From the NCBI GenBank assembly GCA_964016885.1, contig OZ024743.1, positions 72,850,001 to 72,914,000 on the forward strand: a DNA stretch of 64,000 bases, read 5' to 3'. Positions 3,573 through 64,000 of the stretch are shown piece after piece (the stretch's first letter is position 1; every line of letters begins with the position of its first letter). Below the pieces are notes generated by a model. That model saw only the letters and a list, made by a program, of their open reading frames with translations, searched no databases and was not told the origin of the DNA. Origin of the DNA: Eledone cirrhosa. Taxonomy: Eukaryota. Made by a program: the position numbers and the translations under genes.

Positions 3573-3632
<60 letters not shown>

Positions 3633-3850
3633 TTAATACGTATTTACTGAGTATTCAGTAAATATATATATATTCAGTATATAATACACAGTAAATAAAT
3701 ATATATACATATATATATACATATATACACACCAAGTTATTATTATCAACGGACTATATCTTTTAATACGTATTTACTGAGTATTCAGATTTTAATGCTA
3801 CATAAATTAAGTTAGAATTACATTTTGTAGTCATCTGTTTTTCCTTATAA

Positions 3851-8450: not shown

Positions 8451-8671
8451 CAGAGACTTTTAGACGTTAGCATAACACAGACACGTGTAACATTAAGATA
8501 ATCCTCAGGGGTATTCAGTGTGACAGTTTCTTCCAATGCAGCTCCTTTTAATTCTAGGTACAATCCCTACGACAAGTTTCCAAACAATTTCCAGTGACAA
8601 CTTATTGTTGAACCAGAGGCTATGATAGACAACATTCAGCTATGCGACGGTCAGTATTTCTCCTTATTTAT

Positions 8672-8862
8672 AATTGTTTCTACTTTTGGCACAAGGCCAG
8701 CAATTATCCCAGTGTATTATTGATACTTTATTTTATCGACCCCGTAAGGATGAAAGGCAAAGTTAACCTCGGCGGGATTTGAACTTAGACCATAAATTGC
8801 CGTAACTCTTTATTGCCAAGCATGGCGTCCGATCCTCTACCGATACTGCCAATCCACCAACC
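8672..8862 (-). mobile_element. tRNA-derived SINE, full length
   Basis: A/B boxes and core present. ccttattta is duplicated on both sides. Confidence 0.9.
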
Positions 8863-8976
8863 TTATTTAAAATGCTGTTATCAATGATAAGCGGTGGAAG
8901 GCAATCATTTATTTATTTCAAATATAATAGAAGAATATTTGACTCACAAAAAATATCAGGTTATTAATATATTTTT

Positions 8977-9163
8977 GGGGATTGGCAGTATCGGTAGAGG
9001 TTCGAACGCCATGCTTTGCAGCAAACAGTTACGGCCCTTTATGATCTGAGTTCTGATCACACCGAGGTTAACATTGCCTTTCATCCTTATGGGGTCGATA
9101 AAATAAAGTACCAGTAATGCACTGGGATAATTGCTGGCCTTGTGCCAAAACGTGTAAACAATT
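8977..9163 (+). mobile_element. tRNA-derived SINE
   Basis: gattggcagtatcggtagag...gagttc...gcctttcatccttatggggtcgataaaa; inverted relative to 8672-8862. Confidence 0.9.
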
Positions 9164-9270
9164 ATTAGATGCACACGCACATACGCACTAACATGTGTGC
9201 ATCGTACAATTGTGTATTTAATATATTTCTTCTATGTACTATGTTCTTTGGTTTGTTCTTACCATTTATC

Positions 9271-12172: not shown

Positions 12173-15100
12173 GAGTTGGATGTGTGAACGTACGCGGCCT
12201 GGGGATGACCTGGAAAGAGGGCAAACTCTTAAACGACCTCAGGTCGCACAGTATGGATGTGGTAGCCATTTGCGAGTCCAGGATCCACAGCGAGCGACAG
12301 CTGCCCCCCCCCCCCCCCATCTTCGATGACTTTGAGATCTACGCATCTCTCTGTCAACCGGGGCGTGGGGGCGGAGTTCCCGTTTTGCTGCGGAAACACC
12401 TGGGCCTCGTAACACAGACGGTACATCTTGACCCGGAGGGTCGACTGGCGGTCCTAGACGTTGACGGTAGTGAAGGTGGAGCCTTCAGGCTGGTGGCCGC
12501 ATATGCCCCATCCGGGACACCATGGCCAGACTTCTTCAAACGTCTAGAGACTTTTCTGGGAACGTCTCGCTCCCTGCTGTTAGTGGGGGACTGGAATGGA
12601 ATCCTAGTTGCACGTTGGAACTATGTGGGAGCAGTTAATCGACCGATTTGACCTGGCCGATAGATATCGACTAGATTTTCCGACTGCGCCACTGTGGATG
12701 TGGAGTAATCGTAGCGGAACATCTAGATCGTACCTAGATAGGGTTCTAGTTAGAAATAAGGATAGAGACATGTTAAGCTGTCCACAAATATTCATAGTTG
12801 CCTATTCAGATCACAAACTAGTGACCTGCATGGCCAACCTTGATAGAACCCATAGACAAGGACCCGGCTACTGGAAGCTGAACTTGTCGTAACCGACAAG
12901 CAAAGCCTACAGTAGACGGATTAGCACTTTAGTTAAACAGCACTTGACAGGGGCCATTGTCAACAACAGATGGTGGTACTCTCTCAAGAGGGCAGTTAGA
13001 TTAGACTCGATAGTTTTTAGTAAATAATTAGCGTTAGATAGAAATAGAACCGAGAAGGAACTGGTATATTAAGTAGAAGAGGCAATTAGAAGTGGCAACG
13101 TAGCCAGCGTGCTAGCAACGAGAACGGACTTGGACCAGTTCTTCGACGCAAAGCTGGAGGGTTGCGTTGTCAGAAGCAAAATAAGTGCTCTGGGAAACGA
13201 GGGAGCCAAAGCTGTTAGCTGGGCCCGAGTGACGGAGGCAAAAAGTGGCAACAAGTCCACGATTCGGTCTTTGGAGGACCAAAACGGACGCGTGATACGT
13301 GAGCCGAAGCAGATGTGTGCGGCTTTTCAGCGGCACTTTGCTCAACTGTTAGGGAGGGGCGGCGCGCCGGGAGAGGCAATGGATTTCGGTCCATACCTCG
13401 ACGGCCTACCGCGACTCTCGGACAGCGAGGCAAAGTTCTGCGAAAAGCAGATTTCAGCCGCTGAGATAGGGGACGCGCTGAGCCAATGCGGCAAACGCAA
13501 ATCTCCAGGTCTCGACGGTCTACCCTACGAATTTTACGTAGCAATGCCGGACTTATTCTCCGGTCTCCTGGAAGCGGTCTACTGCAACTGGCAACAGAAC
13601 GGAAGAATTCCCAGTTCTGTAACCGGGGGCGTGGTCACACTATATCAGGAAGGACGAGAATAAGGGGGATGTCATAACCACAGAGTTACAGATTTTGGCC
13701 AAGGTGTTTGCAAAGAGGCTGGCGCTTGTTTGTCGAGAACCTGGTGGGAGAAGCGCAGACATGCGCAATCCCGACCAGGTCTATACACGACAACCTCCAC
13801 CTCATGCGATACATCATAGAGAGGGTAGGGTGTAAACCCGGCTTCGGTGGGGCCCTGATCAAGTTGGATAAGTCTAAGGCTCTCAATAGGGTTGACCATC
13901 GTTACCTGGATGCGGTGCTCGAGGCGGCAGGCTTCGGACCCGTGTTCAGGGGCTGGATTGCTGCAATGCACAACAGCAACATCTGCTCAAGGGTCAAGGT
14001 GAACGGCTACCTCTCGGAGCCGTTCCATATTACGCGATCCATTCGACAGGGATGCCCTTTCTCCTCCCTTCTGTACGTACTGACTCTCGAGCCACTACAG
14101 CGGAAGCTGGAGCTATTGCAGGGCATCCCTCTGGAACCGGGACTGCGGAAAGCGACGTCGGCCTACGCCGACGACGTGACAGTAATGGTGTCGTGCGCCT
14201 CGCAAATCGAGGAAGTCGGCACCTTACTGAAGGAATACGAAAGTTTCACAGGAGCGAAGCTGAACCGGGACAAGTCCATCGGTTTGTAACTCAGATCGTG
14301 GAGAGGCAAACCGATGCCTTCCAATGGCCGGAAGGACCGGTAAAGCTGCTCGGAGTCTGGTTTGGTCCGGACCTCCAGGTGGAGAAGAACTGGAACGAAC
14401 TGACGGCCAAGGTGTTTGCACTCACCCAGAAGTGGGCCGAGTGCAAACTATCCTTGAAAGGTCGAGCGGAGGTGGCGAACACTTTTATAGCGTCCGCCAT
14501 CTACTGCCTTGTCCAGCCAAAACGCTCGCCAAAATGGAGCGCGCGCTCTTCCGATTCCTTTGGAAGAGGCGGGCTCCTTTGGTGAGAAGATCCATCTGCT
14601 GCCAACACCCTTCTAACAGAGGGCTGTGGATGCCGTGTTTGACGATGCGCAAACACGCGCTCAGGCTGCGGCATCTCTACGTATTCCTCACCGGACAACT
14701 GGTGTGGGCCCCGTTCGTGAGGCGAACCTTCCCACGACTCGTCTCGCTGACCGAGCTGCAGTCCTGGGTCAAGCAAAGACCGAGGATAATGGGCGACTGG
14801 CACATCGAATGTTCTCAGGCGCTCACAGCCCTCTGGCAGGCGGACTCGGCGATCAGTGGAGACTCCACTTCGTCATTCTATAGAGGGCTGATCCGCAGCA
14901 AGTGCGACGACGCGCTCCGTGAAACTCTAGGCGTAGAGGAAGATGAACTGGCCAGTCTGTTCGGTAGAACCTTCCGCCCGGGACCGATGGACAACTTCCA
15001 AATGTCCCTGGCCTGGCAGTGCTACCGAGGAGCTCTACCAGTTCGAGACAAGCTCTACAGACATGGGCGTCCGGGCAGGGACCCTGCAAAAAAGAACTGT

Positions 15101-15513
15101 CCGAGGTGCGTCCGAGACAAAGAAACCGTCGCGCACGCATTCATACAGTTCCCGGGCGTCACTGACCTGTGGAGCTATGTAGAACGATTATTGTCGCGGG
15201 TGGGACCAATCCGGTTGACCACCGAGTCCATTGTCATGATCAAACCGCCACCCTGCTTCAAAAAGGAAGGAGAGGCGATTTTCCTTTGTGTGATAGCTAT
15301 GGCGAAAGAGGTTGTATGGTGGACAAGGTTGAAAGGGCTGAGGTCAGACACCTTTCTCTCCGGCCAACAACTGATTCTTTTTTTCAAATACCATTTGGAA
15401 GAAGAATCAGGATGGAGAGAGAGGTGCTGTACCCCAGCAAGTTTTATGAAAGGTGGGTGAAAGTGGCGAGAATGGCCCGAGTGAATAGGCCTTCTCTCTA
15501 TAACAGCCTGTAG
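12160..15513 (+). pseudogene. LINE ORF2: AP endonuclease, reverse transcriptase and C-terminal Cys finger, with frameshifts and stops
   Basis: Motifs NVRGL, GDWN, YLDRV, SDH, GYWKLN, KSPGLDG, RQGCP, YADD and CPRC occur across consecutive frames. Confidence 0.93.
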
Positions 15514-19776: not shown

Positions 19777-20077
19777 GCTTGTATCCTCCCTTGTAACTTG
19801 AACACTATTGGTGTTACAATTAACGAGTGATTAACTTGTTGGAAGTATGGGAGCATCAACGTTGTTCACTTGTTGTGACGTGAATTATAAGGAATATGAT
19901 GAAATACAAAACAAGAATAGATACATAGCTACAAGGAATACTTTAAATTTAATATGTCCATAGTTCTACATCAATAGCATATATCTTCCACTTTTAAAAC
20001 TGATGTTTCTGTTCTAGGATTCAAATCAACATTTTGCTATAATGATGTATGGTCTATAGTGGTTCATGTAATATCAA

Positions 20078-20462
20078 TAATTGTTTCTTACTGTTGGCAC
20101 AAGGCCAGCAATTATTCCAGTGTATTACTGGTACTTTATTTCATCGACCACGAGGCAAAGTTAACCTCGGCAGGATTTGAACTCAGACCATAAAGGGCCG
20201 TAACTCTTTTATGCAAAGCATGGCGTCCGACCCTCTACCTATACTGCGAATCCACCGTCCTATGTAATATCAATAATTGTTTCTATTTTAGGCACAAGGC
20301 CAGCAATTTAACAGTACATTACTGGTACTTTATTTTATCGACCCTATAAGGATGAAAGGCAAAGTTAACCTCGGCGCGATTTGAACTCAGAATGGCAAGG
20401 GCCATAACTATATGCCTCACAGCATGGCGTCCGACCCTCTACCGATACTGCCAATCCACCGA
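20078..20462 (-). mobile_element. Two tandem tRNA-derived SINEs (20078-20260, 20275-20462)
   Basis: Both have A/B boxes and core. atgtaatatcaataat is duplicated around the first. Confidence 0.9.
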
Positions 20463-21341
20463 GCCTGTGGATTATTATTAGCAATAATAATATTAGTAAA
20501 TAATATTAAATAATATATGAAATGGAAGTGTTGTACACACTAGATCACAGCATCGTTAATTTCACTTTGCAATCATCGGATACCGACTTCGATCACACTG
20601 CTTGACATCTCAAGCAGGTGTAATTTACCTCAGTCACGGGTTACGTTATGTTCTATGGGTGTAGCTTGGTAGACGGAAAACTATGTAAAGGCCCACCAGA
20701 TAGGCTTTGCCTGTAAACCAAAGGGTCACATACTGTATAGCGACGAATCTCCCTGAGAATTACATTAGATATACATGTGTCTGTGGAATACTCATCTCCT
20801 AGCAAGTGAATTTCCGTTGATATATAAAAAGGAATCGAATCGTCGAAACAAAACGGAAGACCATTCCGCTTCTCACTATGGAGAGGGTGAATGAAACATT
20901 AATTGCATGAACGACAGTATCAACTATAATATGTTGCCTGATTCAGCATTTGCGGCGGTTCATGGTCCCTTAGAGCGGTCCAGTCGGTTGCCAACAGGTC
21001 CCTCCAGTTTTCCTGTTTGGGGATAATTTCCTCCCCCAACAAACAAGACCATCACAGCGGCTTAGAATTGTTATAGGTTCTCTACTTATTTCACTTATTG
21101 AAAAGGGAAACTAATTCACATTGATTAGATGCTAAATTATTTATGGTCGACCACGGCAGGCAAGGATGTAAAAATCGGTGGAGAGCTCTATGTTAACGAG
21201 GGCGGAACTTAGGAAAAAGGAAAAATACGAATGTTATCGAATATATTATAGTAGTACAATAAGACACACGTATATACACATCACATCTCCACACACTCAT
21301 AAACACACATACACAAATCCCACAGACACATATACAGACAT

Positions 21342-24620: not shown

Positions 24621-25671
24621 ATATTAACAAATGGAAACTATATTTATAAAACCATATGTATTGTATTATACATATTTCAAGGGCCACCAAGGCAGATTAT
24701 GGTGCGCTTTCATCAGATAAAATACAATACAGATTAGTTTCATAAATAAATATTGACATACCCTGAAAAAATGCAAACTTTAACGGTTGGAGCTTCCTGG
24801 ATAGTGGAGATATTTGATTTACTGTTATTATTTAGTATGCAAATGAGTATCGGAAAGGTTTAAATAACAGTATATTTAAATTAAACCGTTGGAAGATAGA
24901 AAAAAGAAAGAGAAAAAGAACTGTTTATATATATATTTTGCCAGTGGGAGAGAGTAAACGTGACTATATTTAAGTGAGAGAAAATATCGATAGAATCTTC
25001 AAATCCAAAAAGAATCCACCTTCCAACAAAGTACTAATGGATTTTGAAAATGAGATCATCTCTAATATACAAAGCATTAAATTTAAAAAAAACAACTTCG
25101 TAGGCCAGGATTACCTAAGAAATCTCAAAAATAATATAGAAAGCTTTGAAAAAACGGAAAAAATTCTAGTCAAGTCAGATAAAGCCAACAATCTTTATGG
25201 AATGCAAAAGGATATTCATAACGATCTTATATTGAAGGAACTAAGGAAGAAATACAAAAACAAAAAACCAGTGATGACCTTGAAAAACTACATACGGAAG
25301 CTTCTTACATAATGCAGGAATTAGACATCGAAAATAGGACACAACCCTTCATGCCTAGGAAACCAAAAATTACTATGAAGGACCATAAAAGAAATTTTGA
25401 AATTGAATTACCAGTAGCAAGAATATTTTAGACAGAATCATACCACAAATTAAGGAATTATCTTATTTAAAATTATGGAAAGGGACTAATGAAGTTATCG
25501 ATTGGTTTAAGGACATTAAATATAACTATAATAATAAATTTATTCAATTGGATATTGCTAATTATTACTCCTCCATCACTCCTAATCTACTTAATAAAGC
25601 CCTCACATATGCATTTAAACATACAGATTTAACTAGTAATGAAATGCACATTATCTTAACTGCACGGAAAA

Positions 25672-25826
25672 CATCATGCTTTGGCGCATAGAGTTACGGC
25701 CCTTGCCATTCTGAGTTCAAATCCCGCCGAAGTTAACTTTGCCTTTCATCCTTACGGGGTCGATAAAATAAAGTACCAGTAATACACTGGGTTATTGCTG
25801 GCCTTGTGCCTAACGTAGAAACAATT
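25672..25826 (+). mobile_element. 5'-truncated SINE nested in the Penelope RT
   Basis: B-box and core present; it splits ILTARKT|LIKFNNHLW. Confidence 0.88.
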
Positions 25827-28346
25827 AATTAAATTTAACAACCACCTCTGGACTAGAGCAGACAGAGATAGTAATTTCGATATTACTATGGGGTTATCCG
25901 ATTCGGCACAAATAACGTATCTTGTGGGGCTTTTTATTAATAATACTCTACATAGTAAAATACCGGAGATGACCGGTGGTTTATATCGCGACGATATGCT
26001 ACTACTTATAGAAAATAATAATAACTGTAAAATAAATAGGAAAAGAAAAGAAATTATACAATTTTTTTAATTGCCTTAATCTTAAAGTAGAAGTAGAGAA
26101 TAATTATAAAATAGTTAACTTTCTAGATGTAACTTTAAATCTTAATACTGGTCTTTATTATCCATTCCACAAAATAAATGAGAACCTAAACTATGTTAAC
26201 TTTAATTCCAATCACCCCAGATCCGTTAAAAACAATATAGTAAATTCTGTGCAGCAACGTATTTCTAGAATTTCAGCTAATAAGAATATTTTTGAAGATA
26301 AAGCACAATATTATAACGAAGCGTTAAGTAGTAATAATATTAAATACATTGATAATAATAATGTGCCAACTAACCATAACTATAAAAATTATAATAGAAA
26401 ACGTTACAATAACTCGAAAAACAAAAAAAGAAATAGAACAAGAAATATATTATGGTTCGCTCCCCCTTTCTCATTAAGTATTAACACTCCTATTGTTAAA
26501 TTATTCTTTAAAGCTGTAGATAAATGCTTTCCTAGAACACATAGGTATTACTCAATATTTAATAGACATACTATAACATTATCGTATTCCACCACTAGTA
26601 ATTTAGCGCAGAATATTAATAGAATTAATAATAGAAACTTAAAACCTAACCAGAATACCATTAATAACCCTAGTAACATCCAATATAATAGTACGGCTCC
26701 TAGTAACTTAAATTTAGATAAATGTAACTGTAGATATAAATCTAACTGTCCTCTAAATAATAATTGTTTAGTTAAAAATATAGTATACTATTGTAATGTA
26801 AAAACTAATGTAAATTCCTTTAATTATGTAGGCTCTACCTCCACAGATTTTAAGTCCCGTTTTAATAACCATAAATGCTCTTTTACGAATATTAGTAAAA
26901 AATCATCAACTTCTCTATCTAATTTACTATGGGACCTAAAATCAAAAAACACTAACTATTCTTTACTTTGGAATATTATCTCCAAACTCCTTCATTCAAT
27001 GCTTTATCTGAAAATTGTGCTCTTTGTATAGAGGAAATATTCTTTATGTTAAAAAGTAAGAATTCTGTTAATTTAAGGAATAATTTATTCAGTTCTTGTA
27101 AACATCGGTTAAATTCAACTTTTAAATATATATATAAAATGTAATATATAACTCATATCTTTTACATATCCTCTATTATTATTATACCTATCGATAATCA
27201 TTAGATTCCTTTTATATGACTGCTTGGAACTCCCTTAAAGGAAATAACATTTTTTCTTGAAACATTTTTCTTGATAAACCTACTGAAGGATTTAAGGAAA
27301 ATATTTTGAAAATTCATCTGACGGGTATAGGAAAATTATAATTCATATTTTATATTGTGCATTTTTATATTTCTATATTCTTATATTTTTCAAATGCTTA
27401 ATATATATATATCCAAATGTTTATATATATATGATAAACATAGTGATTTTTTATGTATATGTGGTATAACCTAAAATTTATAATTTAAATATATTTTATA
27501 AATATATTCTTATGAAATATTTTTTTTTGTGCTTTATGCTTTAAATATATTCTTATGACAATTTTAAATGTTATAATTTCTATATGTTGTGACGTTATGG
27601 CAAGTAAATTTATGTTTTAACTGTTATACCTTTATAACAGGTAAATTTATGAATTTATAAATTTATGACTTAGTATAAAATAATATAAGATTCATATTCT
27701 AATTACATTCTTAAGATAGAAAATTTAACTTTTTAACTTCTTAACCTTGTAGCATTTAATCCTTAGAGTCAACTGAGTTATTAATAAATCACTAATAACT
27801 TCCTTTACGCTGTACTGCTATTATAATACAAATAAGGGGTTATTTTTCTGTAAACTCTCGGAATTTCCATGGGTTTAGAATTATTTGGATACTTTTAACC
27901 TACAATTTTTTAATAATTGATAATTAATGATAATATATATTTTATTATAATAATAATATATATGTTTTTATAAAAATAATATATATTTTTTAATGATATA
28001 TATTTTTTAATAATATATAATAGTTTTTATTTTTTAATTTTTTTAATAATCTAACATACACATTTAAACTAATGTTTAAACTATTAAATTATTAATTAAA
28101 CACTTAATCAAATTTATTAATTAAGTGTACCCACTCACTTCTAACTGTGACTGACTGTATCCCTACGGATTTGTTTGATGTCCAGCAACTTTTGCAGCGA
28201 TAGAAGTCTGAAAACTTTTATAACCTCAACTAAAGCTAATAGCAGTCGCCTTGTCTCTGACTGACTGATGTGTCTTCATATGAGGGAATGAATTGTGTGA
28301 GAGAACGTCGTTTTTTTCTGCCTCATATCAAGAATTTGAAGACAAT

Positions 28347-29717: not shown

Positions 29718-30216
29718 AATTTCGTATATCTAAAGCTATATGGTATGTTTAATAAATAAACATTTTCAAAGCCACAGCTACGAATAGATGACTGCCGCTG
29801 AGCACCGCCAAGCGGTGTCCGGCATTGGCAAGGGGGATTGCTGTCTATGTATTTCGAACTTAAATTGTACTTATCAGGACAATGCTTCCATTTCCTACTG
29901 CTGAACTTTGAAACAGGCGAAAATATATAGTTTTTTTTCTTCTCCGTAAATGGGCTGATTAGCCTCATTTTCATACGAAGCTGTATAAATTGACTCAACT
30001 TAAAATATAATTATAATTTAGTTTCGTGTTTGTATACAGCTATCTCGAAAGCTAAATTCTATTATGCATAGATGTTTGTGTGTGTGTGTCTCTATGTGTG
30101 TGTGTGTTTCTGTGTCTGTGTCTGTGTGTGCGAAATTTATTATATTTATTCACCAACTAACCAAATTACTTCTCTAAAAACCTAGCATTTCCAGCCACCT
30201 TTTTCCATATAACACA

Positions 30217-30445
30217 GAAGTAACATTCAAAGACCAACCAGATGTGAGAAAAACCACAAACACTCCATCTCAATTCTACTTTTGAAAAGCAGAAGAAATG
30301 CGAAACCGGTAATGGAACCAAATATATATATATTTAAAAAAAAGGCTACAGTTGCATTTTCGATTTCATCTTTTTTCCTTATAATTTCACTCGTGTAGGA
30401 CACCTCGTTTTTTTTCATTTTGTAAAAGAAAGCTCACTCTCTTAT
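30217..30445 (+). mobile_element. Family-D pLTR fragment with a degenerate U3:A8 HHR
   Basis: Homologous to 32705-32935, 43603-43925, 50470-50825 and 63413-63550. Confidence 0.8.
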
Positions 30446-30451
30446 ATATAT

Positions 30452-30525
<74 letters not shown>

Positions 30526-32704: not shown

Positions 32705-32935
32705 AGAAGTAACATTCAAAGACTGACCAGATGTGAGAAAAACCACAAACCCGCCATCTCAATTCTACTTTTGAAAAGCAGAAGAACTGCGAAACCGGTA
32801 AAGGAACAAAATAAATATATATCTAAAAATAAAAAAGCTCCAGATGCATTTTCTATTTCATCTTTTTTTCTTGTACATTCACACGTGTAGGACACCTCGT
32901 TTTTTTTTCATTTTGTAAAAAAACCTCACTTTCTT
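32705..32935 (+). mobile_element. Family-D pLTR fragment with a minimal HHR at about 32763-32806
   Basis: ctt-TTGAAAA-gcag aagaa ctgc-GAAA-ccgg-TA-aag. Confidence 0.8.
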
Positions 32936-32974
32936 ATATATATATATATAAGATATATGCGTATATTAATTCGT

Positions 32975-34330: not shown

Positions 34331-37300
34331 ATGAAATATAAGAATCAAAGAACTGTTCAAAACATTATTGTGCTTACAGCTGTTTCCTCCAAACCGAGGT
34401 TTGGATTCTTCGGAGCAATTTATTAATGCATGGACAGTTATATGACCTCCTTTTCAGCCGAGAGGCATACCGATACATATTCAAACATTGATACATATTC
34501 AAACATTGTGGGTCAACATTCATTACAGAATTTAGAGTGGCAGTACACACTTCGAGATTACATTTATATTAATAGGTACAATCAAAAATCAAAAATACAG
34601 GTTAAAATACAACATGAAGATAAGCGGTTATATAGTGCAAATGTTATATGTGTGGCACGCATGTGCGTCTTGTTTATATAGTGTGGCAGAGAGATATGTG
34701 TGGTAGAGGCACTTAGGTAGGTAAACAAGAGTGTTAGGTTGGTAGATCTGGTGGCAAATTCATTATATGATTGATAGAGTCTGTGTGTGGAGAAATGTTA
34801 TAAGCATTAAAAATAGTGCAAGCATTAAAAGTGTTAAAAGTATTGGAGATGTACAGCGAAGGGATGTCAAGTATTTCATGTACTTCGACATTTTCATGGT
34901 CAGGGGAGTGTATTTTTCGATTATATGCCCCTCACATAATCCACGACAATTCGATATTGAGAGTTTGACAATCCAGTTAGAGATCGTAGTCTGGTGTTCT
35001 TTAGTTCAATACAGGAGGCTGTTACGTTTCGAGAAACGCCATTGAATACCACCCGGAAGTGTGTGTGTGGCTAAGGGGAGTTAATGCATGCGGGGAGGTA
35101 ACTCCGGGGTTTCTATACCTAGCTATTAAAATGTGTCACAGTATACACCCTAATTTCTATGGTGATGCGCATCCCCCAAAAACATTTTTAAAGCATAAAG
35201 TGTATTAACTATAGAGTAGTTTAATTAAGTTATGCTGAAGGTGATCATATTATTATGGTGGATTAATCCATCGTAATGTGCCACAAATGGAAATTATAGA
35301 TGATGAGCGAGGATTCTAAATTAATGATCTCTGTGGTTGTAGTCTACTCATAGGACCAGGCGCGGTGATTGCAGGATTGCTTCAGGACCGAATGATCTCT
35401 GGTAAGTTCTGGGTCATCGCTTGCTACATTGGATGTCGAAAGATAATCATCCCCAGGCCGGCCAGAGGTCAATCCGCGGTACTCGCGACCCCTCTCTGAC
35501 CGTCAGATCATCCATATATGTACAACCCGCACGGCAGTTGCAATGCATTCACTCACTGCGCTCAGCAGCCTGGTCCTACTGCTCAACAGCGTTACTAGAT
35601 TAAATCGTTTATCATTTGTCTAAGGAAGGTGTTTCCTCTGCACAACACTATCCAACCGATCAATTCATGCTCAAATTACCCATAGAGCGGTGTAGTGCCG
35701 TTCAAGTGGGTGGATGTTGTCACACCTGACGTAGAGGTATAAATGGGTATTCTCCCTGCGAAGGGTTCCAGAGGGACGTCGTTGTTTGTGTTATATTAGA
35801 TCAGTTATTGTTGGGTATGTGGTATAAGGTGTGTCTCTGGTGTTTGATGCTAGATGTGGTGTTAGGTTCCAGTCCGACATTGCTATATATTGCTGATGTA
35901 GGTATGTATGTTGACGTGTGTATGTTGTGGGTTCGTCTTAGGGAGAATTGTTTAGACGGGGTCCGTATTTGTTAATAAAGTGAGACTCCTTGCTGATGCG
36001 CTGGGTGTGGAGGACATTATCTTTAAATTTGTAGAGGGGAAAGATTCTGAATTTGGGATGATTTGGGGCGGCACATGTATCAATGTGTTCACTCAGTCGT
36101 ATTTTCCTGTATTCTCGTATTTTAATTTGGGATCTATGGACAGTCATGCGTTGGCGGAGGCTGTTTTTGGTCTGGCCTATGTATTGTTCTCGACAACCTG
36201 AGCAAGTTAATACATATATTGGATTTTCTGATGCGCATGTGAAATTGTGTTTTACTATAAAACGTTGTCCTTCTTTGAAATAGAATTCCGAACCCTCTAT
36301 TAGGTTGATGCATATGCCACAGTTGGGTCTATCGCTTTTTTTATTATGGTTTTCGTTGTTGTGGTTGGCAGTACTTTGGCATGTGTTAGGATGTTTTTCA
36401 TTGATTTAGATTGTCTTTTGCTCTTTATGATATCGTGTGTTCGTAGGATTTGGTTCATTCTATGGTCCTTTTTTAACACAGGGATGTTCTGGAGGATCGT
36501 TTCAAAGGCCTCATTGTTGAGGGTTTTGTGTGTGGAAATGTATGGAAGAGCTTTTAGTTTCGGTTGATTTACTTTAGGGTGTCTAAGGTCCTGGGTACTG
36601 AGTTTTAGGGCACGTTGGATTCTATTGTCAATTAGTGATGTCTATGAGTGTTTCCTTTAGTTCTTGTAGCCATAACAGGTATTTTTATTGGAGACTATAG
36701 TACAGATTCTCTTGGCTAAGTTGTAGGGAATATTAATTTTAACGTGTCTAGGGTGGCAAGAGTTGAAAGGAAGATATTGCTTGGAGTCTGTGGGCTTGTA
36801 GTATATGTCTGTTTCTATTTTTTGTTATGAATCTTAATGAGGATGTCGAGCAAGCGGGGTTTTTGATGGCTGTATTCCATCGTGAAGTTAATATTCGTGT
36901 TGAGCCCATTTACAAGGGTGTGAAAATCTTTAAGTTTCTCGATGTTTTCGTGCCAAAGGATGAAGAAGTCATCTATATATCGCTTCCAGTTCCTTTCTAT
37001 GTGTAAGTGGAGAGTGTTTCCGAATTTGTTTAGTACTTTAGTGTAGAGGGTGATTTCCAGGTATCCCATGACTAGGTTGGCATACGTGGGGGCTGTTTTC
37101 CTTCCCATAGCGGTCCCAGATTTCTGCCTGTAGGGTTTGTTATTGAAAACGAAGTAATTGTTCTCCAAGATAAATTTGAGTCCCTCTATCACGAATTCTT
37201 TTTTGAAGCGTTGTGGGAGTTCATTGTGGTAATTATCCAGCCAGAATTGGATAGCTTCTATTCCTAGGTTGTGGGGAATGTTGGAGTATAGGTTGACTAC

Positions 37301-39880
37301 ATCGAACGTCACTAGTAGGGTTTGTTCAGAAAGGGGCATATTAGGGAGCTGATTCAGCATATCTAGGTCGTCCCTTATATAGCTTTTGATGTGTTTGAGA
37401 AAAGGCTTGAGAAGGGTATCAATGAAGTTGCTAAGGCGGTGGGTTTCGCAAGCGGGGCCTGCTATTATAGCTCTTAATTTGAGATCATTGGGTGAGGGGA
37501 CATTGATGACTATGTATGTGGCTTCCTTGCATGCCTTACTTATTAATTAGCTTTTATGTACTTTAGGGATACCGTAGAAAAGGCTGGATTTACTTGTGAA
37601 GTCTGTGATGAAGCTGAATTCCTTGTTAGTGAGTCCTTCTTTGTATTGGTTGATCAGTGTTTTTAGGTTTCTCATAATTTTCTGTTGATTGTAGTGGTCA
37701 GCCTTTTCGTAGTATGTTTCGTTTTCAAAAGTGGAGAGCGCAAAGTTGATATAGAATTCTGTCTCCATTAGGACTACTGTACTCCCTTTATCAGCCTCTT
37801 TAATTCTAATGGTTCTGTCGGTTTTAATCTATTTAATTCTTCCCATTCTTTCTTGTTGAGGTTTGGCTTGTGTTTTTGTCTGTGCAAGTGTTGGTAAGGG
37901 AAGATTGTGATGTGTTCATAGAATTCGTCCAGGATTTCATTTCTACCTTTCGATGGGATGTAATTGCTTCTATTTATGGCTAATGATTCATACTCATTGT
38001 ACTGGTCGAATAGTTCTTCACTGAGTCGTAACTTTCTACAGAAGTCTGTGATGTCTTCCTTCATTTCATAGTAGTTAAGACGTAGTGGGGTCGGTGTGAA
38101 TTTAAGACCTTTGGAGAGTAAGTTGATAAGGTTGGGTGTTGGTTTTGCACTAGTGAGATTGATAATTTTTATTACTCTCGGTTTCTCCTCCCTGTCTTGT
38201 GTTATTTTGTTTGCCTGTATCTGTGTGCTGTGTCTAAAAAATGGTTGGGGTAGAGGGGTTGTATGCTGATGTTAAATGGTCTCCTGTGTTTGTTATATTC
38301 CTTGTTGTTGTAAAATGTGGTTCGGGTTCGTGGTTGTAGATTGAATGGGGTTTTCCTGTATTGCGAGTATGGATGTGTGTTTCTATGTGCCATGTTGGAT
38401 TGTGGTGTTATAAGTGGCCTACGTTGTTGGTTGTATCGTGTGGTGTGGGTTTGTTGTGTATTGTGGAAGCGAGAGTTGAGAAAATGGAAATTACCTTGCT
38501 GTCCCCTTGAAGCGGGGAAGTCTATCATGGTGGTGGTATCTTTTCCCTATGTTTGACGATGAGGCATCCGCGTAGTAGTTGAGTGATTTGGTATGGTGTC
38601 TCCTTGAAGGGGGAAAGTTGTAAATGTCATTCTGGGGGGTGTTGATTTCTAGGGTTTTTGTTCCTTCTTATGGTAGCGAGGTTGGGAAGTTCATCTTCGG
38701 TGTGGTGTTTCCTTCTTCTTTTGTTATTGGCTGGGGGGTTTGCGAAGTTGTTGTGCGGTTCGGTTATGGGTTTTCCTATTTTTATGAACGGGTTATTGGA
38801 GGTGTAATCCATAGAAAAGTCGATTCATAGTGTAGGAACCAAGCGACACTTTTTTTCCCAGAGTTGAAGGGAGTTCAGTTCTTCTCTGTTGTAGTCCCCT
38901 TTCCTTAATTTAGAGATCTTTTCTACCTTGGGGCCTTCAGTCTTATTGTTGATTTCCAGGAGGATCTCTTCATCGATGGTTTTGATTTTTTCCTCATTTG
39001 TCTGGGCCCTCAATTTAAGAAGTTCAATTTCGGTCTTCATTTTTTCCAATGCCATTCTTTCCCTAAGCTGTCTTTGAGGTTTGGGTTCATTTGGAATGGA
39101 CTATATTTGTATTTTACGGGGGAGAGTTAGAGGGGTTGAGTTAAGCCATTTTTCATATATCTCCGCTTTGTTGTGATTTTGTATCACCTTCCAGAATAAG
39201 AACTTTCTGTCTCTGAAGGATTTGTTCCATTTTGGAATTGTTTGAATTTTCATTTTGTATGAATCAATCTCACATGGCTCTTCGTTGGTTTTTCCTGGGT
39301 TGGTAGTAGTGAACATAGTTTGGATAGTATCGCAAAGGTTTTGAAGTTTATCGCCGATTTCGGAGGGTTTGTATCCGGTGACGGTTTCCACATTTGTGGA
39401 GTCAAGTTTGTCGACCAGCACAGATAAGTTAGTGTTAATTTTCTTTAGTTCCTGTAGAATCTTTTCATTTGTGTTGATAAGAGTTGTATATGTTTTGTTG
39501 CCATTTTATGTATCTCGTGTGAGGATATGATATTTAAAAGAATAGAAGTGTAACACACGAGTTATGATATATTGGTAAAAGTAAAAGAAAATGCTGACAA
39601 ATTGTTCCCAGTGAAAAATAGTTTAATTAGGAATAAGTAAAAATTAGTAATAGTATTGGTTAGTATTCAGTTTTGGTTTTAAGTTTTACCGGGTGCGCAT
39701 TTCTAATGCTTTCAAAAATAATTTTGAGATAGAGCGCCCGTGATTAGTTTTGGAAATTCTACCTGTTTTATGTAAAAAAAAGTGGCTCCAGATGTATGAA
39801 GAAATTATTGTGGTCAAAACAATTTTGATTGATCGGTAGAGATCATGTGAATATTAAAAATTGATTTTGCACCAATAGTA
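34325..39880 (-). mobile_element. Near full-length degenerate Penelope-like element (Neptune-like)
   Basis: The coding region at about 39504-35938 has LSKGLKFTPTP, FYGIPKVHK, FDVVNLYSNIP, GTAMG, RYIDD, a Cys linker and GIY-YIG. There is a 1.6-kb 3' UTR ending in an HHR. Confidence 0.92.
34371..34417 (-). ncRNA. Minimal hammerhead ribozyme (U4C) at the 3' end of the Penelope element
   Basis: tgct-CCGAAGA-a tccaaac ctcg gtttgga g-GAAA-cagctg-TA-agca, with palindromic stem III ACAGCTGT. Confidence 0.8.
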
Positions 39881-40023: not shown

Positions 40024-40077
40024 CTGCTATATATATTTCCGTGACAGCCATCATTGGCTGTGACCTCTTCAGGCAGT
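40024..40077 (-). ncRNA. Minimal hammerhead ribozyme, family C
   Basis: ctgc-CTGAAGA-ggtcacagcca atga tggctgtcacg-GAAA-tatata-TA-gcag. Confidence 0.85.
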
Positions 40078-41266: not shown

Positions 41267-41470
41267 GTCCCTATAGCTTGAGGGAAGTTCCCTTCCCATT
41301 GCGTTGTTGTTGCCCATATAGCTAGAGGAAGGTCCTGGCCCTGAGGTGTCTACATGTCGCGAGGAAGTCCCTATAGCTTGAGGGAAGTTCCCATCCCAAA
41401 GTGTTGTTATTGTTCATATAGCTTGAGGAAGGTCCGGGCCTGGGGTGTCTACATGTCCCGGAGAAGTCCA
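41267..41470. repeat. 100-bp tandem duplication at the end of the Penelope ORF
   Basis: gtccctatagcttgagggaagttccc occurs at 41267 and 41367. Confidence 0.9.
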
Positions 41471-43444
41471 TCCTGAGTTTTATCAGGCTGCTTCCACCGC
41501 TGAGTATCTCGAGGGTCTCGCTCAGACATAGTTTGCAGATGCCAGATCCCCCTTTATCAGGTGGTACTTTCCTGATTTTGGAGCAGACCAGAGAGTACGG
41601 GGTCCTGTCCAGCTTGAGCTTCCTGATTATTTCGGAAAGAGCCGTACTTTTCCTTTTGTCCTCCCTGTTAAAGGAATGGCGATGTTTATACCATCGGTCC
41701 TTAAAGTTCGTTGATGTGGCTCCTATGTAAAGGAGTTCAGGGTTGGGGGATTTTACTCTACATCTGTATATTAAGTTCTTCCTTAGGCATTCATTACTAA
41801 GGGGGCATAATGCTGGGTTTCTGCAGTTGCAGGAGGTGGTCGACCTCCGCGTATCTAATGTGGGGTTCCCGTTGTCTGTTTGGGTTACTGGGTCCACCCT
41901 TCTTTCCCTCCACATGGTTATGCCGGGTGCCTATATTGAAAGCTTCCGGTTGTATGTGGTTTTTAAGTCTACCCCGATTAATGCTAGCTATGTGCTGGGC
42001 CACATTTCGCGTGGTAGAATATGAGAGCTTTACAGTGTGTCTGTTGAAGATCTTGCGGTATCTATGGTCATTCGGGAAGCATTTATCTACTGCCCCAAAG
42101 AATGAGCGGGCAATGCTGTTCTTTAGGGCGGCTGAATATGGTGGGTTGTACCACGTGATTTTCTGTCTACTCCTATGTGGGTGGGTTGAGCGTGCGGTGG
42201 GCTGTTGGGGAGTTGTTGGGTTGCTAGTGGTTCCCGCATTGCTGCTTCCCCTTTGGGCTCTATGTGTTCTGCTAACTTCCCGGCCCGTATCTCTGGGGTG
42301 GTTGTTACCCACGCTGGAAGTTCTACGGTGGGATTGTCTTCCATCGGTCCCGCTTCGTGTCTTGCGGTTGGGGGCGTCGGGAACGGGGTGGTTGATATCA
42401 CCCTTGAGGCCGCTACTCGTACCGGGTTTCCTCCCATGGTTATGTGTACGCGTGCCTCTCGCCAATGTGGTGGTGTCGGGTTCATGGTGTTTAGTTGTTT
42501 TTACTCTGCTTGTATTGTTAGTGTTCCCCGCTCCCAGATACCGTGGGTCGGGGTATCCGTTGGGCGGATTAAATGATATATTTTGGCCATGCGCCGCCTT
42601 ATTTAATGCTGCGTTGAAATATTCCGCGTTGCTATCGAAGATCTTCTTATTTGCGGACAGGCTGGAGATCCTGTCCGAGACAGTCTTCACTACGGCCTTA
42701 ATTATTGATCTAGGGTGTTTTGATTTGGCGTTAACATATACCAGTCTCTCGTTGGGCTTGTGATAGGGGTAGTATTGCTCGGTGTTCAGGTTTAGGGTGG
42801 TGTCTAGGAAGTTAACTACCTTTCTATTTGGGTCTAGTTCGATATTGAGCCCATGGTTCTTAAAGAATTGCCGAATACGCCTCTCAATTCTCTCCACCAT
42901 TTTTTCTCCATCATTTTTTTTTACTACTTCATTTTTTTACTTCTTCATTTTATTGTATCGTACCTAATTATTTTATTATTTATTTTATATTATATTTTTA
43001 TATTTTATTTCTTCATTTTACCTTATCTGATTCCATTGTCTGTTTGGCACCCCCCACCACGTGAAAGCGTGGGGGAATTGGTGCCAACCCACACACACTC
43101 ATTCTTCTAAAGACAGCAGCAGTAGAACTAAAGCTGACCTGCCAGCTGACCCCCTAACACCAATAAACACAAGGGAAGATGTCAGCTGTACTTAACAAAA
43201 ACAACCACAACAGATTGTCTTGCCTCAGAAAAAAGGATCTATAGACTTTTGACTGAGGAATGTTCTCACAACTGACCAATGGGAGGAGAGAGTGACCTAT
43301 GATGCAGAAATTCGTTTGTTCGAATTCATATGATTCCAGTTCCTCAGAGAAATAACAACCCAACCAGGAGCTGGACATATCGGAGTATTGACAGAATAAA
43401 ACACTTTAACAACATGTGTACCTGTCTCTACCACACCAGTTCCA

Positions 43445-43499: not shown

Positions 43500-43565
43500 A
43501 CATCTTAAATAAACGAAACCAAATCTTAAATATTTGACTTACTTTATTTTATATATATATATATA

Positions 43566-44031
<466 letters not shown>

Positions 44032-44804: not shown

Positions 44805-45395
44805 TTGGACGCCATGCTTTCTAGCATAGTTACGTCCCTTTAAAATCTGAGTTCAAATCCCGTCGAGGTTAACTTTGTCTTTCATCCTTACGGGATCGAT
44901 AAAATAAAGTACCAGTAATGTACTGAGTAATTGCTGGCCATGTGCCAAAAGTAGAAACAATTATTTATGTGGATTGGCAGCATCGATAGAGCGTCGGACA
45001 CCATGCTTTGCAGCATAGAGTTACGGCTCCTTGCGGTCTGTGTTCAACTCCCGCGGCGGTTAACTTTCTTCCTTAGGGGTCGATAAAATAAAACACCAGT
45101 AACGTACTGGGGTCGATTTAATCGACTTTCTCCCCCCTCCCCCAATACTGGCCTTGTGCCTATACTAGAAATCATTATTTACGTGGATTGGCAGCATCGA
45201 TAGAGCGTCGGACATTATGTTTTATGGCATATAGTTACGCCCCTTTACGTTCTGAGTTCAAATCTTGCCGAAGGCGGCTTTGCCTTTCATACTTACAGAG
45301 GCGATAACATAAAACACCAGCAACGCACAGTGGTCAATTTAATCGACTTCCCCTCTCCCCCAAAATTACTGGCCTTGTGCCAGAATCAGAAACCA
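44805..45395 (+). mobile_element. Three head-to-tail tRNA-derived SINEs
   Basis: Copies at about 44805-44963, 44968-45177 and 45183-45395, each with B-box and core. Confidence 0.9.
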
Positions 45396-45834
45396 TATAA
45401 TTACTTGACATATGAAGTATGAAACCTATGCTATATTGAGAGTATGTGCTTATATAACAGAATAAAGTATGTCATGTTACTAGATTAAATGGATCTCCGT
45501 CGGATGAGTGTTCATGTTGTATGATAAATGGCATGTCTTAGTAGTGCAATTCACGAATATATGACTGAATATTTCACTGTAAAGTGTACGAGTAGCACAT
45601 TTGTTAGCATTCGGAAATCTTTGTATATATTTGTCTGTATGTTTTTGTATGTTTCATCTCAGCAACTGTATTGCTGTCTTGCACCATGATATTATTTGAA
45701 TATTTTAATTCCCATATTGATTTCTAATCTTGCATGTGAAGTAACAAGTTTATATTTATATATACACACACAAGCATAGACACTCAAACAAAAACGCGCA
45801 CGCACACATAAGCACAAACATACAGTTATATGTA

Positions 45835-50399: not shown

Positions 50400-50469
<70 letters not shown>

Positions 50470-50473
<4 letters not shown>

Positions 50474-50818
50474 AAAACGAGATGAAATCGAAAATGCAAC
50501 TGGAGTCTTATTTTTTAAAAAAATATATATATATATTTGGTTCCTTTACCGGTTTCGCAGTTCTTCTGCTTTTCAAAAGGTGAGTTGAGATGGAGAGTCT
50601 GTGGTTTTTCTCACATCTGGGAAAAACCACAGACCCTCCATCTAAACTCACCTTTTGAAAAGCAGAAGAACTGCGAACCCCGTAAAGGAACCAAATAAAT
50701 ATATATATATTTTTTTTAAATAAGACTCCAGTTGCATTTTTGATTTCATCTCTTTTTCTTTATACTTTCACTCGTGTAGGACCCCTCGGTTATTTTTCAA
50801 TTTGTAAAAAAACCTCAC

Positions 50819-50825
<7 letters not shown>
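50470..50825. repeat. Family-D hairpin (~140-bp arms plus tail) with an HHR on each strand
   Basis: Arms 50470-50610 / 50620-50762. Confidence 0.9.
50543..50580 (-). ncRNA. Minimal hammerhead ribozyme, family D (U3:A8 covariant core)
   Basis: cctt-TTGAAAA-gcag aagaa ctgc-GAAA-ccgg-TA-aagg, with palindromic stem III ACCGGT. Confidence 0.75.
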
Positions 50826-50861
<36 letters not shown>

Positions 50862-50902
50862 CATATATATACATATATATATATATATAAGTATATATAT
50901 AT

Positions 50903-51080
50903 ATTATTAGAAATGTAAGCTATCGCCGTATTTGATTAAAGATATTAAAGAAATCATTTAGCCTGATAGTGGGGCTAAGAACCCTCGGAGAAATGGAAAA
51001 AGATGAGTATTGACGTACATGGGACTCCCAAATAATTTCTTTAGTCAAAATACGGCGATAGCTTACATTTCTAATAATTT
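50903..51080. repeat. Short inverted repeat (~42-bp arms, ~90-bp spacer) between (TA)n tracts
   Basis: attattagaaatgtaagctatcgccgtattt / aaatacggcgatagcttacatttctaataat. Confidence 0.85.
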
Positions 51081-52373: not shown

Positions 52374-53970
52374 TTACAAGGAATCTTGTAGAGTGAATAG
52401 AGCAATTTTTGCTACATTCACCCACCCTTCAGTAAATTTACTGGGGTCTCTCTTCAGTCTCTCTCTCGCCACTCTGATTCTCCTTCTAAAGTGGTACCTA
52501 AAGAAGGGAATGAGTTGTTGTCCGAAGAGAAAGACATCTGTTCTCAGTCCTCTCAATCTCGTCCACCGTATAACCTCTTTAACCATAGCCACTATACAGA
52601 GGAAAACCACCTCGCTTTTGTTTTTGAAAGAGGTTGGCGGTTTGATCCTTACTATGTACTCGGCAGTCAACTGGATTTGTCCCATACGCGATAGCAGTTG
52701 TTCTGCGTAGTTCCACAGATCGGTTACGCCCGAGCAGTGTACAATTGCGTGCAAGATGGTTTTAATGTCCTGCTCGCGTCTTGGACTCGTCCTCTTGAAA
52801 GGATCCTGCCGGGGCGTCCGTGCCTGTAGATCTTGTCTCGAACTGGTAGAGCTCCACAGTAGCACTGCCAGGACAGAGACCTCTGGAAGATGTCCATAGA
52901 TCCTACAGACTGGTGAGCTCGTCGTCTTCGACGCCCAGAGTCTCTCCGAGCACGTCGTCGCACTTGTGACGTGCTAACCCTCTATAGAATGTCGAAGTGG
53001 AGTCTCCACTGATTGCTGTGCCCGCTTGACAGAGGGTTGTGAGCGCCTGAGATAGATAGATAGATAGATAGATATCTTTATGTATTTGCCACAGGCGCGT
53101 ACAAAAATGGTACATTACAAGACGTGACGGCTGGGGTTTTACATAAAATCATATAACTTTAACATTAACCTCGTCCACCATATTACCTCTTTCGCCATAG
53201 CCACCAGACAGAGGAAAACCGCCTCTCCTTAATTCTTAAATGAAGGCGGCGGAGTGATCCTCACGATGGACTCGGCTGACAACTGGATGCGTCCTACACG
53301 TGACACAATTCCACAGGTCGGTCAACACTGGGCACTGAACAATTACGTGCAGAACGTTTCGATGTCCTACTCGCATCTTAGACAGGTCCTTTTTGCAGGA
53401 TCTCTGCCAGGGCGTCCGTGTCTGTAGCTTTTGTCTCGAACTGGTAGAGCTCCTCGGTAGCACTGCCAGGCCGGAGACCTCTGGAGGTTATGCATAGGCC
53501 CGGACGGAAAGTCCTCCCGAACAGACTGGTCAGTTCGTCCTCCTCGATGCCTACAGTTTCCCAGAGAACATCGTTGCACTTATCCTCCACTAATCCCCTA
53601 TAGAATGTCGAAGTGGAGTCTCCACTGATTGCCGTTTCCGCTTGGTAGCGGGCTGTGAGCGCCTGAAGGCACTTGATGTGCCAGACAACCATTTTCGGTC
53701 TTCGCTTGACCCAGGACTGCAGCTCTGTTAGTGAGACGAGTTGTGGAAGAGCTTGTTTCACAAAAGACAACCACACCGGTTCACCGGTCAGGAATACCTG
53801 GAGATGGCGTAGCCTCAGCGCGTGTTTGCGCATCACCAGCCACGGCATGCCCAGCCCCCCGTTAGAAGGGTGTTGACAGCAGATGGATCTCCTCACCATT
53901 GGAACCTGTTTCTTTCAGAAGAACTTGAAGATAGATAGATAGATATGTTTCTTTATTAGCCACAGGGGCT
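52374..53970 (-). mobile_element. Stack of three 5'-truncated copies of the Tx1-like LINE, joined by (TATC)n
   Basis: 53945-53969 is the extreme 3' end (ccctgtggctaataaagaaaca). 53075-53928 and 52374-53049 encode the ORF2 C-terminus homologous to 14550-15510. Confidence 0.9.
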
Positions 53971-58252: not shown

Positions 58253-58409
58253 CAGAAGTATCCGGCGTTGTCCGGGTGTAAGTCGATATTTGCTCTGTTG
58301 TTAAAATGTGTGAAAGTTACTTCCCACGCATCACAGTGGCGAAAACCTTCTAACCAGAAGGAAAAAACAGAGGTTAGTAGACGCAGGTGTGTAATTGAGC
58401 ATAAATAAT

Positions 58410-58593
58410 TGTTTCTACTTTAGGCACAAGGCCAGCAATTACCAGTGCATTACTGGTACTTTATTTCATCGACCCCGTAAGGATGAAGGGCAAAGTCAAC
58501 CTCGGCGGGATTTGAACTCAGATCGTAAAGGAACGTAACTATGCTGGAAAGCATGGCGTCCGACCCTCTACCGATACTGCCAATCCACCGCCC
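58410..58593 (-). mobile_element. Young full-length tRNA-derived SINE with a 15-bp TSD
   Basis: ttgagcataaataat at 58395-58409 and 58594-58608. Confidence 0.95.
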
Positions 58594-59934
58594 TTGAGCA
58601 TAAATAATGGCTCAATTGTAGGTTCACAGTGTATCGTTGAAATTGTTCTTTGCACGACTGACGGAAGTCAAATTCACTTGAAATTGAATTTTCAGTTGAT
58701 TTTTAAAGCAGGGTGAAAAAGTCGATTCTTTCACAGTTTCTTTTTTTTTAATAAAATTTCGCGCTCACATGTGCAGAAGAAGAAATAAAAGGGAATTTAT
58801 CTGAACTGCGGCATAATGGCGAGTCTTTTGCGAGAGTTTTCAAGAAAATCGGAGGTTCCTGTAAAAAGTTTTCCTATGTGCAACTTTGACTTGTTTTTTG
58901 CGCAAAGTCGAACCCTCGCTTCAGTTTTATTGATTTTTTACCTGAATGCGTGACCTCTGAAGTAGATTTGAGTAGCTAAAAACCTGTCCTGGTAAATTTG
59001 CTATAGGTGAAAAAAAGTTGATCAAAATTGTGTCTAGGGTTATTGCCCTTTGCAAAAGCCTCAACGTGTCTTCAAGTATGGTTTGTTAATTTGTTGTGGA
59101 ACTAAATCGACTTTCGTCAAATCGGACCGAGGAAACAATGTTTCCATTTGTCTTTCTAACTTGCGTACCCGGTTACACTCGGGATTATAAGGCGCTGGAT
59201 TTAAACGGGTCTGCGCTAAATTCCAGCAGGATGCTTTAACCGAAATAAATTAAGAACAAACGTTTCTTTTTGTGCGCCAATCTGTGATATTGGTATTTTG
59301 AAAAAAATAGTCCACAAACATCCATGGAGCATGTTTAACGCATGTATCAGGTTATGAGAACAAGTTTATCGATTCTCCATTCATAAGATACCAAAAATTG
59401 CACGCAAATAAACCGGGATTTTAAGGCACTGCCCAATTCATAACTGAAAGGTAAGAATCAAGTGGAATAATGTTTTTCGCCATTGTCAAATGTACAACCG
59501 TACAAAAGTAAAGGATATAGCCATTGAAATCTAGGTAGACCAAAGAATTTGGTGGGGTTGTATATCAGAGGATTGTTTTCCTTGTGATTCGCGTCTAGCC
59601 TACAAAGTGAAGTTAGATGATTGTAGTCGGTGTTGTATCAATAAAAAATAAAAGTATACGGAAGACTGAACACTTATGAATTAAGTGAAAATCACGTTGA
59701 TATTCCTATCGGAACAAGATGTGCCGAAAAACCTGACGGACTGTTGTGTCAATATTGAAATCGTAGAAATTGCGAATCCCGACTTCTAAGATGTAATGGA
59801 TAGGCCTAGGAGGTGAAGAGGAAGAATTGGTACAATTGTTTTGCTGAACATGTTAACCATTAATTTAAATAGACTTACGCAGCATCATCGTGCGGTTTTG
59901 TTCTTTATGGCCTAGAATGAGGACCGGTTAAACG

Positions 59935-63333: not shown

Positions 63334-63412
<79 letters not shown>

Positions 63413-63416
<4 letters not shown>

Positions 63417-64000
63417 AAAAAGAGATGAAATCGAAATGCAACTGGAGTCTTTTTATTTTGTTTCGCAGTTCTTCTGCTTTTCAAAAGGTGAGTTGAGATG
63501 GAGGGTCTGTGGGTTTTTTCACATCTGGTTGGTCTCTGAATGTTACTTGTTTTATATGGAAAAAGTGGCTCGAAATGCCAGGTTTTTCGAGAAGAAATTT
63601 GATTGGTTTGTCAATAATTATAATAAATTTCGCACAAGTTCGCGTTACAATAGTTCTTCAAATAAGAGGGGGGGTTGTCACAGGTTGGTTTTTTCATATA
63701 TGAGTGTTTGAATTTCTTTTTACTTGAAAAAAGGGGGCTCACGAAGGCTTTTTTGGGGTTGGTTCAAAATAAGGGCACAAAAATTTAATGAAAACTTGTT
63801 CACGTGACAGCCATAATTTCATTTATAACCAACCAAAAAAAAGCCTTCGTGAGCCCCCTTTTTTTAAGTAAAAAGAAGTTCAAACACTCATATGTGAAAA
63901 AACAACCTGTGATAACCCCCCCCCCCTTCTTATCTGAAGAACTATTGTAACGCGAACTTGCGCGAAATTTATTATAATTATTGACAAACCAATCAAATTA
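63413..64000. repeat. Family-D pLTR piece (-) running into a hairpin with ~180-bp arms (63597-63775 / 63826-63998)
   Basis: Direct reverse-complement match; the right arm reaches the window end. Confidence 0.88.

Follow-up and report, generated by a model that had tools for sequence, protein, structure and literature searches.

Does the 38-base segment at 50543-50580 of this 64,000-nucleotide stretch of the Eledone cirrhosa genome (the window) encode a hammerhead ribozyme, what carries it, and is its core a compensated one? A sequence-only reading had proposed a minimal hammerhead in which the tertiary pair C3-G8 is replaced by U3-A8. From sequence comparison we hold with good confidence that the motif is a minimal type I hammerhead in the terminal repeat (pLTR) of a Neptune-type Penelope-like element (PLE), with U3-A8 in place of C3-G8, and that it likely cuts element RNA only as a dimer.

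Written as RNA from the reverse complement of the window, the segment is CCUU UUGAAAA GCAG AAGAA CUGC GAA ACCGGU A AAGG. Its parts are as follows, with what places them in brackets.

50543..50580, minus strand: minimal type I hammerhead motif, 38 bases (sequence and descriptor match)
50577..50580, minus strand: 5' strand of helix I, CCUU, with its partner AAGG at 50543-50546 (descriptor and fold)
50570..50576, minus strand: core box U3 U4 G5 A6 A7 A8 A9, U3-A8 replacing C3-G8 (descriptor; cross-family covariation)
50557..50569, minus strand: helix II GCAG/CUGC with loop AAGAA, first pair G10.1-C11.1 (descriptor and fold)
50547..50556, minus strand: G12 A13 A14, palindromic helix III ACCGGU, and A17 (descriptor and fold)

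Both type I core boxes (C3/U3-UGA-N-G8/A8-A and GAAA...UH) are present as UUGAAAA, GAAA, and U16.1 A17. In the repeat family to which the motif belongs, family D, all core residues besides the 3:8 pair are standard and G10.1-C11.1 is retained. Going by hammerhead numbering, the predicted cut presumably lies between 50547 and 50546. A relaxed motif search, as the sequence-only reading had called for, used a descriptor allowing either core and gave two matches in the window, against zero across 60 dinucleotide shuffles made in 500-base blocks; with the sequence itself it confirms a 38-nt minimal hammerhead with a U3/A8 core at this position. The expectation that standard searches would miss it held for Rfam, as no hammerhead family appeared among the 150 of 201 window matches listed or when 50520-50604 was searched alone. 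The Rfam models are probably not designed around minimal motifs with U3-A8, which may explain the absent match. The motif is short and A-rich, and without an Rfam match one might suspect an A/U-rich repeat stretch that merely resembles a hammerhead by chance. The empty shuffles, the presence of the motif in both pLTRs of the element, the canonical C3-G8 hammerheads at the homologous place in relatives, and the covariation of the stems all argue against this. The last two largely refute it, and we regard chance likeness as extremely improbable.

All five family D copies that had been named in the window carry UUGAAAA, as claimed. One coordinate, 30292, was off by 10 nt and falls inside helix II; the core there is 30282-30288. 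Only two of the five have an intact motif. The GCAG/CUGC stem II and palindromic ACCGGU ascribed to the best copies are indeed present in the intact copy with its core at 50570-50576. The copies and their surroundings, called from the sequence, are:

core 50570-50576, minus strand: intact motif, 4-bp helix I
32728..32966, plus strand: second-subfamily copy with an intact motif and a 3-bp helix I, core 32771-32777 (sequence and descriptor)
30127..30475, plus strand: older copy with one mismatch in helix I and one in helix II, core 30282-30288
63347..63636, minus strand: copy with an internal deletion after GAAAC, core 63478-63484
50612..50825, plus strand: forward copy of the 3' end of the element, truncated on its 5' side, with a damaged hammerhead (core 50655-50661) and the tail at 50762-50825
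50471..~50620, minus strand: inverted pLTR arm holding the motif, without the 64-nt tail
50404..50470, unstranded: (TA)n target, left flank
50825..50904, unstranded: (TA)n target, right flank
43599..44005, unstranded: inverted pair of family D ends, truncated downstream of the motif and without a hammerhead

The damaged hammerhead at 50655-50661 has lost A15.1 and the palindrome. Between the two inverted ends of the last entry lies an unrelated, near-perfect hairpin of 115 nt (43679-43793).

We found the family D motif to lie in the pLTR of a PLE. Searching the 3.0-Gb genome with the forward copy gave 30 loci with a common 3' end and a variable upstream reach, 29 of them followed by (TA)n. At least 12 of the 30 have an inverted upstream arm, a lower bound obtained with a strict pattern. 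The arm begins at a fixed internal point without the last bases, and the arms lie 74 to 736 nt upstream, mostly without the tail, which is 64 nt long in the window. Seven long copies, when extended, reach up into a GIY-YIG endonuclease, and two of them (L031 and L035) also have a reverse transcriptase frame. L035 is a full-length, frameshifted copy: a motif at 2793 and the tail come first, then a start codon some 25 nt past the tail, and after it the coding frames and a second motif at 7829. These motifs, 5,036 nt apart in the same orientation and one per pLTR, flank the reverse transcriptase and GIY-YIG frames. The L035 frames match RVT_1 with an E-value of 5e-05, under the curated Pfam cut-off; the pieces of family D miss cut-offs that the sister family N2 passes. 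A linker of the CX2-5CxxC type (CGRSNCAAC) precedes the endonuclease, which reads LVYAIKCKGCNEDYIGQT and has the motif Y.I.C..C...YIGQT. The exact 30-nt core of family D occurs 11,539 times in the genome (5,818 + 5,721) and not once in the control.

Family D thus has the marks of an EN+ PLE, with a reverse transcriptase followed by a C-terminal GIY-YIG domain, 5' truncation, an inverted 5' arm, and a tail at one end. Neptune and Nematis PLEs are marked by the CX2-5CxxC linker, a (TA)n bias, an inverted 5'-truncated arm, and a one-end tail (Craig et al. 2021; PMC8557442, in excerpt). Like them, family D combines these with a C-terminal GIY-YIG domain and a hammerhead near the 3' end; its 64-nt tail compares with 30-40 bp in those elements. 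We class the element as probably Neptune-type, an assignment made from these motifs. The sequence-only reading of a minimal type I hammerhead is upheld by this PLE context and by covariation across families; it had overlooked that the copies are PLE ends and that the motif sits in an inverted arm.

Because the inverted pairs at 50467-50764 and 43550-44005 resemble terminal inverted repeats, we also weighed a stand-alone short element, either a fold-back DNA element or a retrozyme, with the pair at 50.5 kb as its working unit. A fold-back transposon was rejected since the family has one fixed 3' end and variable 5' ends that reach coding frames for a reverse transcriptase and an endonuclease; the variable spacing of the mostly tailless arms also speaks against it. 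We likewise rejected a non-LTR retrozyme, which would consist of head-to-tail non-coding monomers with one hammerhead each. Head-to-tail arrays of 150-400-nt monomers were not found in the loci examined, and the copies consist of truncated ends of PLEs and of inverted pairs. With the full-length L035 contradicting it as well, a stand-alone unit has almost no credence with us.

How might a PLE motif of this size act? A single copy did not form a stable helix III in folding predictions, having a loop of only 2 nt, as expected for the minimal type that acts as a dimer. When two copies were modeled together, the pairing probabilities were 0.92-1.0 for helix III, 0.84-0.85 for helix II, and 0.60-0.65 for the swapped helix I. 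The hammerhead register of the dimer comes to -18.9 kcal/mol; the minimum, -20.3 kcal/mol, belongs to a fold with a longer helix I in which U3 is paired to A17. By this model the U3-A17 register is likely an inactive one peculiar to the U3-A8 core. A dimer has been put forward for minimal PLE hammerheads generally (PMC4209133, in excerpt; reviewed in PMC6765202, likewise), and their activity is given as low (same excerpt of PMC4209133). For a PLE of the anole, excerpts of PMC11167929 report that hammerhead cleavage required protein and that insertion in vitro was not impaired by hammerhead mutants.

We propose that a transcript of the full element would contain same-orientation motifs in both pLTRs, the arrangement observed in L035. 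The two are predicted to pair through the ACCGGU palindrome, forming a shared 6-bp helix III with the strands of helix I swapped. Cleavage would then follow A17 and might be slow or helped by the element's protein, as in other PLE hammerheads. With U3-A8 in the core, residue 8 would still be held in position by a tertiary pair, as covariation and the literature lead us to expect.

To support compensation, the sequence-only reading had pointed out that positions 3 and 8 change together in all copies. They do: U3 and A8 are present in 81 of 81 aligned copies (the 58 best-scoring loci plus the window). Such uniformity reflects inheritance from one founder and not covariation. As U3 and A8 are common by descent, compensation cannot be read from five members of a single family. 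Conservation within the family was also rejected as support for the motif, which is kept no better than its flanks (mean majority of 0.971 in the motif, 0.956 upstream, and 0.976 directly downstream, in the family D alignment of best-scoring loci only). The E. cirrhosa genome gave no match to a C3-G8 twin of family D. Looser C3-G8 patterns matched 6 times in the genome versus 144 in the control, and another 112 times versus 14. Most of those 112 belong to one repeat, CUGAUGA ... GAAACCGGUC, with about 100 matches (L239-L253, L258) and a helix II that pairs poorly; no PLE frame was found beside it in 20 loci.

Compensation is instead supported by covariation across families. Another PLE, at 35938-39505 of the window (minus strand), encodes a protein with 397 of 748 residues identical to that of family D and led us to family N2 (also L099, L104, L105), found by the position of its motif behind the frame. 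N2 has a near-intact 784-aa frame with reverse transcriptase and GIY-YIG domains, above the Pfam cut-offs for RVT_1 and GIY-YIG. A 455-aa frame upstream, in a different reading frame, overlaps it at a run of U. Behind the 784-aa frame, at the homologous place, the motif reads UUUU UUGAAAA GCAUU UAGA AAUGC GCA ACCGGU A AAAA. Its helices have changed yet are still paired, and C13 replaces the invariant A13. As in L035, both pLTRs have a motif (L105, 1578 and 6002).

The other families were found with core-box patterns, which matched the genome 637 times (control, 4), 27 times (control, 0; this pattern also fixed the two outer helix II pairs), and 3,418 times (control, 39). N3, N4, N5, and N7 were recognized among the matches listed, the first 100 places for the large sets. 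N3 and N5 follow Neptune-type frames and share their orientation; for N4 and N7 the only tie to a frame is a single inverted neighbor each. All five further families in the genome keep UUGANAA and ACCGGU, with helix II reading GCAUU/AAUGC, GGCUGU/ACAGCU, GGC/GCU, GCAU/AUGC, or GAUG/CAUC. Sister families include ones with a U10.1-U11.1 mismatch, and helix I is short or broken at the third and fourth pair in N4, N5, and N7.

We also scanned metagenome contigs and obtained 76 related loci. A five-core descriptor found C3-G8 on the coding strand of 10 of them and U3-A8 in L192, L206, and L238, with two further doubtful matches. Motifs lacking a sound first helix II pair were added by eye and with a core-plus-palindrome pattern. 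Relatives with the same GAAACCGGU have C3-G8 (L172, L177/178, L179/187, L180, L189/195). U3 stands with G8 once among these loci, in L238, outside the set compared here. That set comprises 18 representatives, the six genome families and 12 metagenome loci picked by hand from the 76, for which a palindromic helix III was required and helices I and II were not. Over the 18, the 3:8 pair is U-A in 8 and C-G in 10, and position 7 varies freely. Positions 2-4 of helix II are paired in 48 of 54 cells (shuffle mean, 20.8) and positions 1-3 of helix I in 45 of 54 (shuffle mean, 26.5), values that none of 20,000 shuffles reached in either case. The six genome families alone gave 17 of 18 for helix II (reached by 127 of 20,000 shuffles) and 13 of 18 for helix I (236 of 20,000). 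As the partner shuffles ignore relatedness and the representatives were hand-chosen, these shuffle counts are not probabilities.

A midpoint-rooted FastTree tree was built from 37 query-anchored proteins, with L168 and L196 left out. In it the eight sequences of this genome form one clade (support, 1.0) beside lineages that mostly have C3-G8, and L192, with U3-A8, is nested among the latter. By this topology U3-A8 likely had separate origins, one at the root of the radiation in this genome and another in a different lineage. On the protein tree, PLEs have exchanged C-G and U-A at 3:8 on more than one occasion, comparative support for selection on the tertiary pair in minimal motifs.

The same comparison bears on whether the motif still cuts. 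It could descend from a true hammerhead that no longer cleaves here, kept as a folded signal (for protein binding, packaging, or positioning the start of reverse transcription) or carried along with the pLTR. C13 is fixed in N2, which is young and near-intact, and helix I is weak in N4, N5, and N7, an indication that a fully sound ribozyme is not required for some families to move. The competing U3-A17 pairing in the predicted dimer, the dispensability of cleavage for insertion in vitro in the anole PLE (PMC11167929, in excerpt), and the weak activity of minimal PLE hammerheads (PMC4209133, in excerpt) point the same way. Family D, however, retains every other core residue and G10.1-C11.1, and the 3:8 pair has survived independent swaps in lineages with protein identities to N2 of 33-73%. 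A pair kept through independent swaps is the pattern expected from selection on a catalytic fold, and we judge loss of cleavage in family D unlikely. Family D with A13 and N2 with C13 offer a natural pair for asking if PLEs need cleavage.

A more elaborate scheme, which we hold to be very doubtful, would have the Neptune-type radiation (six or more families, with copies in the tens of thousands) fix U3-A8 together with A17 as a switch. U3 would pair with A8 (on) or A17 (off), G|GUAA would lie across the cut, and cleavage and splicing of the 5' leader would exclude each other, so dividing template RNA from messenger RNA, with C13 tolerated.

The variant itself is not new, and the known picture is unchanged: the U3-A8 variant, the pLTR location, and the dimer model are already published. 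Dimer-cleaving variants of PLE hammerheads were reportedly also described by Lunse, Weinberg, and Breaker in 2016. What is added is a set of minimal hammerheads with U3-A8 that is both young and very large. Cervera and de la Pena (2014; PMC4209133, in excerpt) gave about 1,300 PLE-type matches with U3-A8 in Schistosoma mansoni, from a descriptor for that core. Like family D, the Cercyon hammerheads in that excerpt are of type I, lie in the pLTR, and have a 4-bp helix I, G10.1-C11.1, and a palindromic helix III region; most copies are truncated, and opposite-strand pairs occur (100-700 bp apart in Cercyon). They differ in having a helix II of 7-8 bp and one extra base after A9, whereas family D has 4 bp and none. 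The host also differs, being Neptune-type and not Cercyon, with 11,539 near-identical copies in place of heterogeneous families. PLE hammerheads of Drosophila, rotifers, shrimps, and a mosquito in the same excerpt share with family D a short, dimer-favoring helix III palindrome; family D is set apart by U3-A8. Natural U3-A8 hammerheads were described by Perreault et al. (2011; PMC3088659, in excerpt), who cite earlier in vitro activity. Theirs show the same 3:8 covariation and the U10.1-U11.1 mismatch of our sister families and, unlike family D, are not presented as PLE motifs in the excerpt. Among the papers listed, titles and the starts of abstracts revealed none on family D; the supplements of PMC4209133 or Lunse et al. 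2016 may list such families or C13.

The copy at 50543-50580 itself is likely a silent by-product of insertion, as modeled here. Its partner, with the core at 50655-50661, is damaged and on the opposite strand, and no same-strand partner lies nearby on either strand. A transcript over 50467-50764 is predicted to form a single hairpin (-205.6 kcal/mol) in which 35 of the 38 motif bases are paired. Judging by its architecture, the copy is the inverted 5' arm left when a short truncated copy inserted into (TA)n, with its motif buried in a predicted 150-bp hairpin. The likely silence of this copy follows from that burial and from the lack of a same-strand partner nearby.

A splice-donor-like G|GUAAAG lies within helix III, across the predicted cut (L035, 2817-2915; window, ~50681-50779, plus strand), and family D has a pyrimidine tract and UAG 98 nt beyond it. 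Among the joints listed, in contigs of four runs of unknown kind, none fits the suspected intron; 11 further joints lie outside that list. The leader intron of Penelope overlaps its hammerhead (PMC4209133, in excerpt).

The window has other PLE-like families as well. Four canonical C3-G8 type I hammerheads, each using a (TA)n palindrome for helix III, are found at 29021 and 43450 (plus strand) and at 40072 and 24716 (minus strand); three are CUGAAGA with a long helix II, and the fourth, CUGAUGA, has a helix I of 12 bp. Frames of still more PLE-like elements survive as remnants at 2478-3643 (minus), 26036-27031 (plus), and 41322-42936 (minus), with a weak GIY-YIG match at 41325-41930. What we take to be a broken non-LTR retrotransposon lies at 10883-15460 (plus); its frames are of zinc knuckle, endonuclease-like, and reverse-transcriptase-like types, and part of a second copy is found at 52374-53931 (minus). 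A short interspersed repeat of about 200 bases is present in many copies (1448-1744, 8666-9170, 20066-20506, 25671-25835, 44807-45407, and 58400-58595).
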